Assembly: GCA_951406725.2 (NCBI GenBank)
Contig: OX597825.1
Coordinates: 12,524,001-12,588,000, forward strand
Length of the DNA: 64,000 nucleotides
Origin: Octopus vulgaris
Lineage: Eukaryota
Direction: 5' to 3'
The notes under the pieces were generated by a model. That model saw only the letters and a program-made list of their open reading frames with translations. It had not been told where the DNA came from and made no database searches. Below, piece by piece: positions 107 to 56,935 of this stretch (position 1 is the first letter of the stretch; each line of letters starts with the position of its first letter). Both the position numbers and the translations under genes were made by a program.

Positions 107-415
107 ATCGTAAACGGATTTAATTTAATTTAATTAAATTCGATTACGTAAAAACGTCGAAACTATGCATAGTACAAAGTTGAAGGGGATAAATGTTTTT
201 ATTTCTCCTTTAGTTCCAGAATTACTACTATTTTGCGGTTTGAGTTTAGCTGCCCTTTCAAGTGAGTTGAACGGCCTGCCAGGGTCATTCCTTAATACTA
301 TTGTTGAATATATTATATAGTCTGTGACTATTTCTACTTTCTCACTTGACCGCTGGTTGCAGAAACTTTTTCTTGAATTTTTCTTGAATTTTCTTTGCTA
401 CCCTTATATTGATTA
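107..415 (+). mobile_element. Penelope pLTR/retrozyme-like repeat fragment carrying the 3' half of a hammerhead (family H1)
   Basis: 200-412 matches 17310-17523; 107-145 is the reverse complement of 16878-16916; GAAA at 159-162, with palindrome ACTATGCATAGT (162-173), then A and CAAAGT. Confidence 0.7.
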
Positions 416-469
416 AAAAAATATATATGTATGTATATATGTATGTATGTGTGTACGTATGTATGTTTG

Positions 470-760
470 TGTGTAAGTCAGCAGGTATTAAAGCTTTTAG
501 TATGGAAGCCGAGCACTGGGTGCAGATGGAAAAAATCAGTCAGTTTGGAAACCATTTCAAATACGAGATTCGAAAACTTAATCATGAAACCTATACTTCA
601 GAAACTGGTATTCCAGACAGTTGTCTGACTGAAAACTTTGTAACATTTGCCGTAGCGTCTGTTTGTTACATGCTAGTCACATGAGATCTCATGATCGCAT
701 TTATTTATCGAAGAAAATCACATATATCTGTGAGGGTATTTCAATCACCATAAATAAAAG
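470..760 (+). mobile_element. Decayed 3' end of an RTE-like LINE with C-terminal C2H2 finger
   Basis: 639-692 translates CNICRSVCLLHASHMRSH (Cx2C...HxxxH); upstream frames are broken; flanked by (TATG)n. Confidence 0.45.
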
Positions 761-2430
761 TATGTATGTATGCATGCATGTATGTGTGTTTGCGTGCATG
801 TATGTATGTATGCATGTGTGTGTATGTATGTATGTATGTATGTATGTATGTATGTATGTATGTATGTATATGTGTGTGTTCTGTTCTGTTGTCACTTGAA
901 TTCTCTCTCTGAGTGAAGAAGCCGGTTTCTATGAAAGATACGAAGCTCTATCGTTGGAATGTACATAACGAAAACAGTGTTCCATTTTAATCTTGAGAAA
1001 TGTGTTGCATAGATTTACTGTTCCACTTCAAAATTGTATTTGTAATCTGCGAGATAATGAGTTGATGTGTTTTATTGACAATCCAAGTTCACCAATTATT
1101 ATCAGTATAAATTTAAATTTGTAAGGTGTATATTGATGCATGTATGTTTGTATGTTTGTATGTATGTAAGTGAAAATTATTTCCGGAATTGTATTTTTGT
1201 CTTCCTGCGTTCTTTACTTTTCACGTTTACATACTGAATATACATAGTCTACGGCAAATCACAAACACACATCTCCGAGTCATTCTATTGTTGCCACTCT
1301 TGTAAATTTAGAAAAACGATTTTATCTCCTTAAACAATAATGGCAGGAAACTGCATCAGCATTCTAATTCAAGTGTTCTCTCGTTAATTGCGGTCACTAT
1401 AAGAGAGGTTTCATCGAACAACTAGCATGCCTTCATTAAGCTAGAAATTGACAAGTCTCCACAAACGATAATTTACTCAAGAACCCTACAACGGCCATTA
1501 AATAGTAAAACAGTAAGGGCCTAGAAACTAATCCCATTTTATATATACATACGTCATTATAGATTGACATTTATTTCCTCTCCGATTGAGAGGTTCAGCG
1601 GGAAACTTGAAAGCCTTCTCTTTCCTCACCTCATAAAACTTATTCTACTAAATTATTTCCGAAGCCATTAAAGGCAATCTCTATGGTTCCTTTTATGACT
1701 ACTTGCACATCTATGTATACATCGGTGATAGACATAATCCATCACCCTCTTTAATATCAGCTCATGTTCCCCGCAGAACAGAGAACATCCTCTTTCACGT
1801 AGTCAAACCAGGTTTCCCCTTTTACATTAAACGATATATCTTCATTCAGAACTTCCTAATTCAACAAATCATATGTCTCGTTTTATTTTCCCCCGCAATT
1901 TCAACCCTGCAAATATCATGGCCACTAACACCCATACACTCCCTACTGTTTAAAATAATCTCAGCAATCGATTAATATCGTTTTCTTTCTCACTACTTGC
2001 ATTGCAATATCAATGAAAATAACTTTTTTAAAGAACCCCTGCATTAAATACGCTAACACAAATTTATTGATTTCTATGCAGATAGCATACAGTGACCTAT
2101 GAACACTTTTTATCCAGCTGTTTATTTTCATTTAATTACATGTGTCTTCCGTTCTTTGCAAGTATATACAAATTTAATTATATTTTCTGATAAATTTTGA
2201 CTTCAATTTAATAGAACACAACAATGTAAACCATTGGCAAAAATGCGTAGAGGCGCTTGAACTTGGCAAATTTCGTGGCTGATGTGAATATGGAAAATTC
2301 GATAATAAGAAAAAAGCTTAATATTTCGGTATTAATCATGAGGCACTAATTAACACAGAGAAGAATTGGACTAAAGAAAGACATTTACGAATCAGGAAAT
2401 GTTTTGGGAGGCACCAGTAAGATTAATAAG

Positions 2431-2850
2431 GACTACTTCCTTGAAAATCATATTGCAATAAGTGCTGAGAAAGGACAAAGATTCCGCCAAGACATCGGGA
2501 CCATGGTGGCTAGGTATCAAAACAGGTGGAACCACAAAGGTGATTGCTGACTCTTGCGATGCAAGTTTTTCAGGCAAACCAGCAAAGAGAACGTTCACGT
2601 CTTGGGAAACTGAAACTCCAGTTTGACAGATATATAATTCCTAAGATGTGGAATTTAACATTTTATGTAATATATGTATTAGCCTTTAATTTCAGTATTG
2701 CATTTTGTTACAAAGTGAATTTCTGTTTAACAGAAAACTTGACGTGATAGAAAAATATGTGAGCACATTTCTGAACTCAGTTCTATCAAATTAGTTAAGA
2801 CTAATTTTTTTAAAAAAAAGCAAGACAATTATAAATTTTGTTCGAAAATG
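2431..2850 (+). mobile_element. Chapaev3-like (Transib-related) DNA transposon 3' remnant
   Basis: 2431-2557 reads DYFLENHIAISAEKGQRFRQDIGTMVARYQNRWNHK/VIADSC (one frameshift), resembling the recalled motif DFFPENLGAVSDEHGERFHQDI..MEKRYQGRW...MLADYC; the 3' extent is approximate. Confidence 0.6.
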
Positions 2851-3149
2851 TTGCTCAGCTTTCATATTCAGAGAGTAAGCAGTAGAAAACAAAGCTTGAA
2901 CTAATGGGAGAAAATTGACTGATTTCGTTCTGACATCTGTGAATCAAACTCAACAGAAAGTTTGTTCGTAATTGTTCCTGTGTCTTAATGTAAACAATAG
3001 AATAGAATATGCAAGGATCTCGAATATATATACACGACATTATGGAATATATATTCTCATTACTTATTTGCACCTGCGACTATATAAACATGAATATATA
3101 TATATATATATATATATATATATATATATATATATATATATATATATAT

Positions 3150-3295
3150 AATAAAGCAATTAAGATTCAAGTGAGTTCTTTGAATTCACATGAATATGGT
3201 ACTTAACTTGGATGCACCAGAAATCTATATGGTGTTAACCATAAGACACAGTGGGGTGATTACAAATAGGATATTGATCCATTCTTGTTGTTTTT
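3150..3295 (-). repeat. Interspersed repeat related to the foldback element at 11776-12035
   Basis: Reverse complement of 3190-3262 matches 11958-12030 (TAACACCATA...TTCTGGTGC...TTAAGTACCATATTCA). Confidence 0.6.
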
Positions 3296-3865
3296 TCATA
3301 TATATATATATATATATATATATATATATATATATATATATATATATACAGGGTGGCCCAAAAGTAGGTTTACAGTTATCATACAGTTGTCAAGCGATGT
3401 TGGGGGGACAAATACACACACAAACACACACACATATATATATGTATATATATATAGGTTATAAGAAGCAATGGTGTCATTGAGACCCAAAGGTGTCCGG
3501 TAATGCTGAATAAGTGCTATAGATAGACCATAGTTAGGTTCCAGGTTCGGTGATTTTGCGAATAAGGGGTTCAACGTTGGTCATATATCAGCGAGTGTAT
3601 CTGAGAAATTGTTTGCGGAATGAGATAAAAAAAACTAAGGCTCTGTATATACTAGAGCATTTATCTCTCTCTCTCTCTCTCTCTCTCTCTCTCTCTATAT
3701 ATATATATATATATATATATATATACACACACATATATATAGTCGGTTAACTAAGGATCACAATTAACTTTCACGTGGATATATCAAACTTAATTCGTAA
3801 ATAAAACGTATACATCATCTGAAATAAATTTTAGTCTTTTCACGTCTTTTTACGTAATAGTAAAT

Positions 3866-55425: not shown

Positions 55426-56192
55426 CACACGCACACACATACACACACACAAAACACACAAACACATATAAACACACACACACACACACACATACACACA
55501 CACACACATATATATATATATATATATATATATATATATATATATATATATATATATATATATATATATATATATATATATATATATATATTGGCGACGA
55601 ATGCAGTACTAATAACGGGAGGTAATATTTATCACCTCTTAACTTATACCGCAATATAGTTATGTAGTTTGTTCTAACGGAATATCCACGTTCAAGTGGG
55701 GAAAAATCTAGCGATGATAACAAACCTGGATGTATTTCAAGAAATGATATAATGTAAACACTGACGATAGGTATTCTTTTCTCTGGTATTAAGTTGCTTT
55801 CCTTTCAAAGTACTTTTCTTTAGGCATTACAACTTTTCAAATATTTAACCTCAGATACATATTTTTGTTTACTTTGAGTTCCTGTTTAAGTGCAGTCACT
55901 AAACGCAAGAGAATTTCTTTTCTAAGGGGAAAATATGTATATTATTATAGCAAATTCTTTATTTAATGAACTCTAGCATCTGTATGGCTGCATGGTATTT
56001 CGTCTCATAAATATCAGAGTGAATATTATCAATATGAAGATATAAGCGATTTAAAATAATATTCGCTTGGAAGGGAATGACTTTTCAGAATACGTGTAGC
56101 ATTACAGTTCTATTTTTCAGAGATGCGGAATTATATACATTATTTACAATAGTTACATTTGACGGATATTTTTCCTCATTTTGTTTGTTCTT

Positions 56193-56238
56193 AACGCAAC
56201 GTTTCGGCTGATATAACGTCCAGCCTTCATCAGGTGCC
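56193..56238 (-). ncRNA. Minimal type I hammerhead, canonical core (family H3)
   Basis: GGCAC-CUGAUGA-A-GGCUG-GACGUUAUAU-CAGCC-GAAA-CG-UU-GCGUU within repeat 56085-56357. Confidence 0.7.
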
Positions 56239-56355
56239 TTGGAGAAATTTCGAACATGGATTCTCATTTCTAAGCTATTTTTCCGATGTTGTTGTTATTA
56301 TTATTATTATTATTATTATTATTAAATTCAGAGTTCTATTCCAGGCAGTGACCTG

Positions 56356-56490
56356 AATAATAATAATAATAATAATAATAATAATAATAATAATAATAAT
56401 AATAATAATAATAATAATAATAATAATAATAATAATAATAATAGTGATAATAATCATAATAATAATAATAATAATAATAATAATAATAAT
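56356..56490. repeat. (TAA)n microsatellite
   Basis: Trinucleotide tract. Confidence 0.95.
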
Positions 56491-56494
56491 TATA

Positions 56495-56770
56495 TGAGAA
56501 TGATCCCTGGCTTACCATCCCTGCAAGAAGTGCAAAAGATTGTCTTAACTGGTACATCACACGTATTGCGAAGAGCATTGTCGATGTGAGAACTGTTGCT
56601 GCTCATGTATTTTAATTTAACTTTAAAAAAATAAAAAATAAATGAACGAACTATTGAGTTTGGTTTAATGGCCTAACATTGTATACTAAGAGTTTCTTTG
56701 CCCTAGGAGTCGGGAAGACGCTCGGCAAGAAATGGAAGCACATTTGAAAGAAGAAGAAAAAAAAATAATA
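56495..56770 (+). mobile_element. 3' end of an R4/Dong-like LINE inserted in (TAA)n
   Basis: MIPGLPSLQEVQKIVLTGTSHVLRRALSM* (QK..LLGT..ILR..L terminal motif), then 3'UTR and A/TAA tail. Confidence 0.75.
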
Positions 56771-56774
56771 ACAG

Positions 56775-56935
56775 CAACAACAACAACAACAACATCGGAA
56801 AAATACCTTAGGAATGAGAACCCAGGTTCGAAATTCCCCCAAGACAATTGATGATGGCTGGAAAGTACATCAGTCTATACGTTGTTAACAACAAACAAGA
56901 TGGGGACAAGCATCCGTCAAATGTAGCTAATGTAC
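56775..56935 (+). mobile_element. Decayed family H3 repeat, inverted relative to 56085-56300
   Basis: AACATCGGAAAAATACCTTAGGAATGAGAACCCAGGTTCGAAATT...TTGATGATGGCTGG. Confidence 0.75.

Follow-up and report, generated by a model that had tools for sequence, protein, structure and literature searches.

The window analysed here is a 64,000-nt stretch of the Octopus vulgaris genome (assembly GCA_951406725.2, contig OX597825.1, positions 12,524,001 to 12,588,000, forward strand), in which a first-pass annotation had listed five foldback-forming repeat families, H1 to H5, bearing hammerhead motifs. We found that these families comprise two 3′ ends of Penelope-like elements (H2 and H5), two retrozyme-like units (H1 and H4) and one tRNA-headed element, probably a Penelope parasite (H3), mostly known in kind. 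The majority sequences of all five form predicted Penelope-type minimal hammerheads, and it is very probable that they are inserted, from a fixed 3′ end, by a Penelope-like protein with reverse transcriptase (RT) and GIY-YIG domains. The families were followed in the 2.8-Gb host assembly containing the window, at genomic loci (L-numbers) spanning 1.5 kb on each side of a match. First-look candidates numbered 602 for H1, 3571 for H2, 3893 for H3, 766 for H4 and 1410 for H5, with 40 scored per family. Each family is a dispersed repeat with hundreds to thousands of genomic relatives, which bears out both the reality of the five families and the abundant, diverse hammerhead population proposed for this genome. 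The accompanying proposal that they are non-coding retro-monomers fits H1 and H4; it fails for H2 and H5, which are truncated 3′ ends of RT + GIY-YIG elements, and for H3, which is tRNA-headed and non-tandem. The foldbacks are mostly inverted 5′-truncated copies belonging to Penelope insertions, not a property of the RNA, with the long rod of H4 as a possible exception.

H2 and H5 are 5′-truncated 3′ ends of protein-coding Penelope-like elements, with RT and GIY-YIG encoded upstream. Upstream of one long H2 copy the sequence continues for about 750 nt and enters a broken GIY-YIG frame, and among loci chosen by this upstream stretch H2 lay downstream on the same strand in 21 of 25. The H2-linked upstream frames read RT, cysteine linker, GIY-YIG, and 13 of the 25 H2-upstream loci matched an intact, Pfam-supported 781-aa RT + GIY-YIG open reading frame (ORF) of the host genome (best E = 4e-32). 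For H5, 18 of 20 loci chosen by upstream sequence connect to the hammerhead, several of them showing RT-thumb and endonuclease frames, and H5-linked frames adjoin GIY-YIG and HTH_animal clusters in the protein Atlas. By BLAST an H5 frame matched the 781-aa ORF weakly (E = 9e-5), and Pfam and PDB searches of the H5 frames gave no match. The linker is of the CxxxCxxC type with CC..HH in H2 and CxCx5C-like in H5. At the loci examined, all ORF copies linked to either family were broken, and most H2 and H5 copies lack the ORF. In both families the hammerhead lies near a sharp 3′ end, 5′ truncation is variable, and the 3′ flank is microsatellite (29 of 30 H2 and 23 of 25 H5 loci, against a background of 19%); 12 of 25 H5 loci carry an inverted upstream copy. 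The intact 781-aa ORF itself belongs to a young Penelope family at L167 (G000:C16:20834000-20841500), which has a frame of 359 aa upstream, tandemly repeated sequence in the 3′ untranslated region, its own U3-A8 hammerhead with an ACAUGU palindrome, and many equal-length frames genome-wide.

The majority forms of all five families have the features of a minimal type I hammerhead, apart from A6 in H2. H1 combines a 6-bp stem I and canonical core with a long, branched stem II and a 12-nt palindrome; H2 has a 4-bp stem I, CUGUNGA core, extra A, 4-bp stem II, ACGU and U or A at position 17; H3 has a 5-bp stem I, CUGAUGA core, extra A, 5-bp stem II, GAAA, an ACGU palindrome and U17. The H4 fold, at the tip of a long rod, has a U3-A8 core, a 4-bp stem II and a 6-nt palindrome (ACUAGU, ACGCGU or ACAUGU), and that of H5 a canonical core, bulged stem II and 9-nt near-palindrome. 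For every palindrome tested, the stem III self-duplex was favoured over the hairpin. Palindromic stem III and the U3-A8 (H4) and U6 (H2) cores, all reported from the window at first pass, recur in the family majority forms.

Several observations suggest that the fold is likely to be under selection in the master copies, with position 7 free and the rest held. The stems are paired in all five families despite unrelated sequences. Among 23 H4 copies, 12 pairs had changed on both sides, stems I, II and III included, against 6.6 ± 1.9 in shuffles (3 of 500). Position 7 varied in 20 of 68 H2, 17 of 78 H3 and 8 of 30 H4 copies, compared with about 3% at other core positions. Exact intact motifs number 3,020 for H3 and 15,817 for H2 genome-wide, with none for the controls. 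Separately, a contig end from another organism (run X15) carries an H1 stem III variant that is self-complementary throughout despite several changes, a weak observation from one contig.

The H2 core departs from the hammerhead consensus at position 6, which is U in 66 of 68 aligned copies. Among the first 100 of the 15,817 matches, read by eye, position 6 was U in 96, A in 2, C in 1 and G in 1, and position 7 was U in 44, A in 24, C in 20 and G in 12. Position-7 states travel with other diagnostic changes and so mark subfamilies. An H2-related repeat with the same layout in L263 has A6 (CUGAAGA). A register with two insertions and A6 was considered for H2 and rejected, since L263 has CUGAAGA and the free position lands at 7 under the U6 register. 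The phage Bcep176 hammerhead is likewise a natural position-6 variant, A6C, a change that strongly lowers Mg2+ cleavage (PMC3088659, PMC7151607; comparisons with published work here and below refer to the parts of the cited papers that were covered). H2 differs from it in having U6, in belonging to a eukaryotic retroelement and in its more than 15,000 copies in several subfamilies. The U6 core was not found in our literature searches; Lunse et al. 2017, on such variants, may contain it. The H2 hammerhead may be a weak cleaver, or may work through a variant core.

Three processes are established: reverse transcription by Penelope RT/GIY-YIG proteins primed at the target, cleavage of dimers through palindromic stem III, and closure of circles by ligase. 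For the octopus families, reverse transcription would begin at the fixed 3′ end and usually stop early, leaving 5′ truncation, and would often fold back, leaving an inverted copy and a one-ended tail. H1 and H4 would be copied from circular or multimeric RNA: under the retrozyme model, two ribozymes would pair their palindromic stems III and excise a monomer that a host ligase would close. H3 would be an RNA polymerase III (Pol III) transcript starting at tRNA +1 and copied uncut. The prediction is for slow cleavage that depends on dimers, and for still weaker cleavage in H2 with its U6. The published anatomy of Penelope insertions includes an inverted 5′-truncated copy and a one-ended tail (PMC8557442). 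Orientation counts were used for H2, H3 and H4, the H1 and H5 queries being left out because they contained AT repeats; an inverted upstream copy was present at 16 of 30 H3 and 15 of 25 H4 loci, with none downstream in either family.

Not all observations favour this account of fold and insertion, and the following weigh against it. The core is significantly more conserved than its flanks in H2 and H4 only (H3, p = 0.21; H5, p = 0.56), in a comparison of H2 to H5 whose copies had been picked by alignment over the core; the H1 statistics were set aside because its GAAA had been placed wrongly. Position 7 is invariant in all 53 H5 copies, and the shuffle control for the H4 pair changes ignores the relatedness of the copies. 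H2 is seldom inverted nearby (1 of 30 loci). Measured against the predicted cut, the 5′ truncation point lay no more than 3 nt away in one of the 41 unselected truncated copies and in one of the 159 selected ones, 2 of 200 in total, in a test that misses fragments below 45 nt and relies on inexact BLAST ends; as the cut site shows no clustering of 5′ ends, cut 3′ pieces are no visible source of insertions. H2 appears Neptune-like and H5 Nematis/Hydra-like by motif rather than by tree. The search for RT + GIY-YIG ORFs linked to the flanks, suggested at first pass, succeeded for H2 and H5 and yielded no autonomous partner for H1, H3 or H4. With the L167 ORF as query, tblastn matched 1 of 26 H1, 0 of 60 H3 and 0 of 25 H4 loci, a weak negative given that the H5 ORF was missed likewise.

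It is possible, if rather doubtful, that the fold mainly gives the Penelope protein something to bind or recognise, and that cleavage is needed little or not at all. Intact H2 motifs with U6 exceed 15,000 while position 7 varied among subfamilies, the phage A6C change impairs cleavage, H3 has a single mid-template hammerhead and probably inserts uncut, 5′ ends avoid the cut site, and a survey of Penelope hammerheads reported low activity and left other functions open (PMC4209133). Against this, catalysis needs GAAA, G8/A9, a 3-8 pair and a base other than G at position 17, each of which is retained, selection for slow or delayed cleavage gives the same picture, cut 3′ pieces may just be poor templates, and Naiad elements spread without canonical hammerheads (PMC8557442). 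A related suggestion, which we advance tentatively, combines H3 as a Pol III-transcribed tRNA-derived short interspersed element (SINE) riding Penelope uncut with an H2 U6 kept through at least four position-7 subfamily changes: the fold may have been selected as an RT recognition element, or in an undescribed U6 geometry, and not simply as a self-cutter.

H3 consists of a tRNA-derived head, an (AAT)n stretch and a hammerhead body, with Penelope insertion anatomy, and is likely a short Penelope parasite; it resembles a Penelope-moved tRNA SINE. The 75-nt head lies upstream in 18 of 30 loci chosen by the body, 15 with (AAT)n alone between and 3 with a later insertion. In loci chosen by the head, the body lies downstream in 22 of 30 by BLAST and in one more by eye, and all three heads found among 184 unselected loci adjoin an H3 body. 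Both an A box and a B box are present in the head, and from tRNA +1 it lines up in register with host tRNA-Arg and tRNA-Ala genes; scores against tRNA genes reached z = 8.9, 7.9 and 7.3 over shuffles, with the reverse strand at background (20 of 34 listed genes). No tRNA was called by ARAGORN in 10 H3 loci or by Rfam in three stretches of H3, the head being too decayed, and a phage BLAST of the head, in which 4 of 5 weak matches (E 0.6-2) fell on annotated tRNAs, is too weak to count. The 5′ end is sharp and often folded back at its first base, the fold point being tRNA +1. TTTT is absent from 28 of 30 H3 bodies and from 19% of random 275-nt stretches, which are longer and not like-for-like. 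Of 59 loci, 30 were two-ended, and in these the 30-nt tail stood at one end in 28, at neither in 2 and at both in none. No H3 match was found among 30 GIY-YIG loci, mostly of one family. A reading of H3 as antisense was rejected, since its inverted partner is found on the 5′ side, the arrangement that the other families share.

The closest published likeness is with the Schistosoma Sm-alpha/Sj-alpha SINE-like repeats, short elements that also combine a hammerhead with a tRNA-type Pol III promoter (PMC6765202). Sm-alpha is described as tandem and as released by cleavage from multimers, whereas H3 never occurs in direct tandem, starts at tRNA +1, has a minimal hammerhead and shows Penelope insertion anatomy. 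A Penelope-moved tRNA SINE was not found in our literature searches. We regard it as improbable that H3 is a mere co-occurrence of two things, an independent tRNA SINE ending in (AAT)n and a hammerhead repeat of its own that favours (AAT)n. Such a pairing would account for the 12 of 30 body loci without a direct head, for the bodies that follow the (AAT)n tail of other retroelements and for the missing Rfam call, but not for bodies downstream of most chosen heads and of all three unselected ones, nor for the inversion of head and body together as a single unit with its fold point at tRNA +1.

H1, with a unit of 487 bp, and H4, with one of about 350 bp, have no ORF, are partially tandem and resemble retrozymes that lack long terminal repeats (non-LTR retrozymes). 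Upstream of the hammerhead we found the unit's own 3′ end, direct or inverted, and never an ORF (at least 12 H1 and at least 24 H4 loci, of 25 each). Three 487-bp H1 units stand head-to-tail in L168, and H4 forms partial tandems with periods of 351 and 358 bp; no locus with two whole direct H4 units was found among those examined. The H1 and H4 insertions cross the predicted cut site, which points to a template in the form of a circle or of a multimer left uncut. Compared with shuffles, the H1 monomer has the better fold (z = −3.4). Its head-to-tail joint is present in contigs of 2 of 4 public sequencing runs, none recorded as RNA and so silent on expression or circles. Animal non-LTR retrozymes are likewise ORF-less units with one type I hammerhead each, occur as monomers and as partial or whole tandems, and are tied to Penelope (PMC7229834; bioRxiv 10.64898/2026.07.22.740005). 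They are known as circular RNA, whereas H1 and H4 are known here from DNA alone; the 487 nt of H1 exceed the retrozyme range of 170-400 nt (PMC7229834), its stem II is long and branched, and the H4 hammerhead sits at the tip of a rod of about 45 bp.

That all five families are non-coding retrozyme monomers yielding circular RNAs is very improbable. The units of H1 and H4, the stable H1 fold and the many ORF-less copies of H2 and H5 would suit such a reading; it is refuted for H2 and H5 by the RT + GIY-YIG frames upstream, and H3 has no direct upstream body copy at 30 loci and no copy of its own 3′ end directly upstream at 29 head loci. The notion that the foldbacks are miniature inverted-repeat DNA transposons matching hammerheads by chance, for which their long terminal inverted repeats, TA flanks and a first relaxed descriptor no better than shuffles might speak, is refuted by arms variably truncated at the centre, one-ended tails, ORF links to RT + GIY-YIG and covarying stems, and we give it practically no credence.

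The window copies of H1 to H5 are decaying insertions, and with them stand fragments of a sixth family:
107-416, plus strand: 5′-truncated H1 copy, core lost; the 3′ half of the hammerhead at 156-179 comprises the stem II 3′ arm, GAAA, 12-nt palindromic stem III and stem I 3′ arm.
11775-12029, no strand assigned: foldback of two 3′ fragments of the sixth family, with hammerhead 3′ halves at 11812-11828 (minus) and 11906-11922 (plus).
14108-14138, minus strand: short H3 3′-end fragment.
16878-17305, minus strand: inverted H1 copy that crosses the head-to-tail joint between two units (about 17097) and continues into the second; its core, CUGAUGA, is at 16932-16926, and it breaks off within stem II.
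17305-17530, plus strand: direct H1 3′ fragment, in 97% foldback with 17095-17305, with (TA)n at its end.
18750-18860, plus strand: decayed H2 copy, core CUGUUGA at 18753-18759, stems partly broken.
18923-19044, plus strand: H2 copy truncated in stem II, core absent; missing from the first-pass list.
20914-21050, plus strand: decayed H3 body, core at 20974-20980, preceded by (AAT)n after the 3′ end of another retroelement.
26115-26332, plus strand: H2 with whole hammerhead, U6 core CUGUGGA at 26216-26222; apparently a Neptune-like Penelope 3′ end, then (TA)n.
29799-30285, minus strand: H4, ACGCGU subfamily, whole hammerhead, U3-A8 core at 30009-30003, foldback 30103-30285.
48909-49108, minus strand: H2 copy, core at 49029-49023, single stem I mismatch.
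53918-54102, plus strand: H5 copy, core CUGAAGA at 53942-53948, one stem III change; apparently the 3′ end of a Nematis/Hydra-like Penelope element, then (TA)n.
54992-55428, minus strand: H4, ACUAGU subfamily, whole hammerhead, U3-A8 core at 55250-55244, inverted arms on either side.
56100-56295, minus strand: H3 body whose hammerhead is whole (CUGAUGA core, 56233-56227), with a 30-nt tail.
56331-56355, plus strand: 3′ remnant (B-box side) of the H3 tRNA-derived head, read from sequence, on the strand of the 56786 copy.
56786-56934, plus strand: partner H3 copy, oppositely oriented, with its core at 56848-56854 and a broken GAAA.

All motifs named at first pass lie at, or within a few bases of, the places given for them, but only four hammerheads are whole: 26216 on the plus strand (H2) and 56233 (H3), 55250 and 30009 (both H4) on the minus strand. 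The copies at 18749, 48998, 20969, 56840 and 53932 have breaks in a stem or in GAAA. The H1 motif is split over two insertions 17 kb apart (5′ half at 16923-16937, 3′ half at 156-179), and its reconstruction from these halves was correct, the whole motif occurring in 22 of 25 H1 loci examined, some of which overlap. Among five weaker remnants proposed, that at 11.9 kb is a 3′ half of the sixth family (77-79% to L144/L169) and that at 14.05 kb corresponds to the short H3 fragment with nothing more confirmed; those at 26.65, 54.15 and 54.6 kb matched none of 284 loci and stay unconfirmed. The H3 copies at 56100-56295 and 56786-56934 are one Penelope-type inverted insertion, with a later long interspersed element (LINE) fragment within its (AAT)n.

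Some further observations concern neighbouring repeats. The sixth family, known from L144 and L169, has a canonical core, long stem II and 8-nt palindrome; it is a long foldback with a one-ended tail of about 70 nt, inserted at the end of a copy of the 781-aa family. LINE fragments are repeatedly inserted in the internal (AAT)n of H3 (window 56360-56760; L002, L024, L219, L224, L230, L244), and by a C-terminal motif they appear R4/Dong-like. An 89% foldback at 54773-54952 is flanked by TA repeats, has relatives at 7 loci and shows Penelope-like anatomy; no hammerhead was seen in its window copy. A 710-bp foldback (83%) lies at 6225-6935, with related repeats at 12.8, 14.6, 35.0, 47.0, 47.8 and 58.6 kb. 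A short frame at 15474-15560, interrupted by a TA repeat, is presumably a Penelope RT thumb, and fragments at 58764-59123 and 62630-63181 presumably derive from a non-LTR RT and a mariner-type transposase, all by motif and none with a Pfam match. Other SINEs in the window look like octopus SINEs.

The window has 34% guanine and cytosine and is rich in microsatellites and repeats. It holds no credible long ORF; frames of at least 100 aa are mostly microsatellite read-through, and a Pfam scan of 7 such ORFs gave nothing above cut-off. An Rfam scan returned microsatellite and foldback noise, with no hammerhead among the matches listed (150 of 357). The excess of motifs over shuffles expected at first pass depended on the descriptor. 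A strict canonical descriptor matched nothing in the window, and the first relaxed one gave 4 matches against 2.1 ± 1.3 in shuffles, which is not significant; a minimal-hammerhead descriptor, designed only after the families had been seen, gave 4 against 0.2 ± 0.5 (40 shuffles, maximum 2), with 0 in a complement-only control. In 200 kb of arbitrary genome (twenty 10-kb stretches) the same descriptor found 7 against 0.7 ± 1.1 (15 shuffles, maximum 3), again with 0 in the complement-only control, so the window is not clearly richer in whole motifs. Of these seven, two were H3, one H5 and one a relative of H2; H1 and H4 were not found in this sample. With the class already published, it is no surprise that 64 kb of a Penelope-rich genome should hold five families. 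At least 10 further single hammerhead-like motifs with other palindromes (L246:9253, L249:7726, L197, L178, L128, L205, L214, L224, L228 and others) suggest many more hammerhead families in this genome.

Earlier work already covers U3-A8 cores, the additional base that follows A9, a palindromic stem III and the overall arrangement. H2 and H3 match the consensus of Cervera & de la Pena 2014 (PMC4209133) in core, extra base after A9, G10.1-C11.1 and ACGU palindrome; the U3-A8 core of H4 was published there, and its Fig. S3 contains longer palindromic stems III of the H1 and H5 type. It also described mostly solo truncated copies, with opposite-strand pairs 100-700 bp apart. A6 stands in all 56 rows of Fig. 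S3 and is fixed in the consensus, whereas H2 has U6, and the H5 fold requires a single bulged base at the foot of stem II. No octopus entry was found in the supplement file searched. The Neptune and Nematis/Hydra clades (Craig et al. 2021, PMC8557442) share with H2 and H5 an RT followed by a C-terminal GIY-YIG, a cysteine linker and (TA)n targets, and with the families here 5′ truncation, an inverted 5′ copy and a 30-40 bp tail at one end; they differ in that H2 and H5 are placed by motif and known from broken ORF copies. Literature searches found no description of octopus hammerheads, and an octopus repeat paper (PMC13282606) does not mention hammerheads in the parts covered.

Within the literature searched, U6 in the H2 core and the design of H3 are new variants, and both bear on the open question of Penelope hammerhead function, a role that PMC8557442 calls unclear. 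With over 15,000 copies, this U6 core would escape descriptors that fix CUGANGA, and it offers a ready means of comparing A6 with U6. H3, in turn, is a 300-nt minimal substrate for defining Penelope RT recognition, and with such a tRNA-headed element of Penelope anatomy, Penelope would join the groups of retrotransposons known to carry SINEs.

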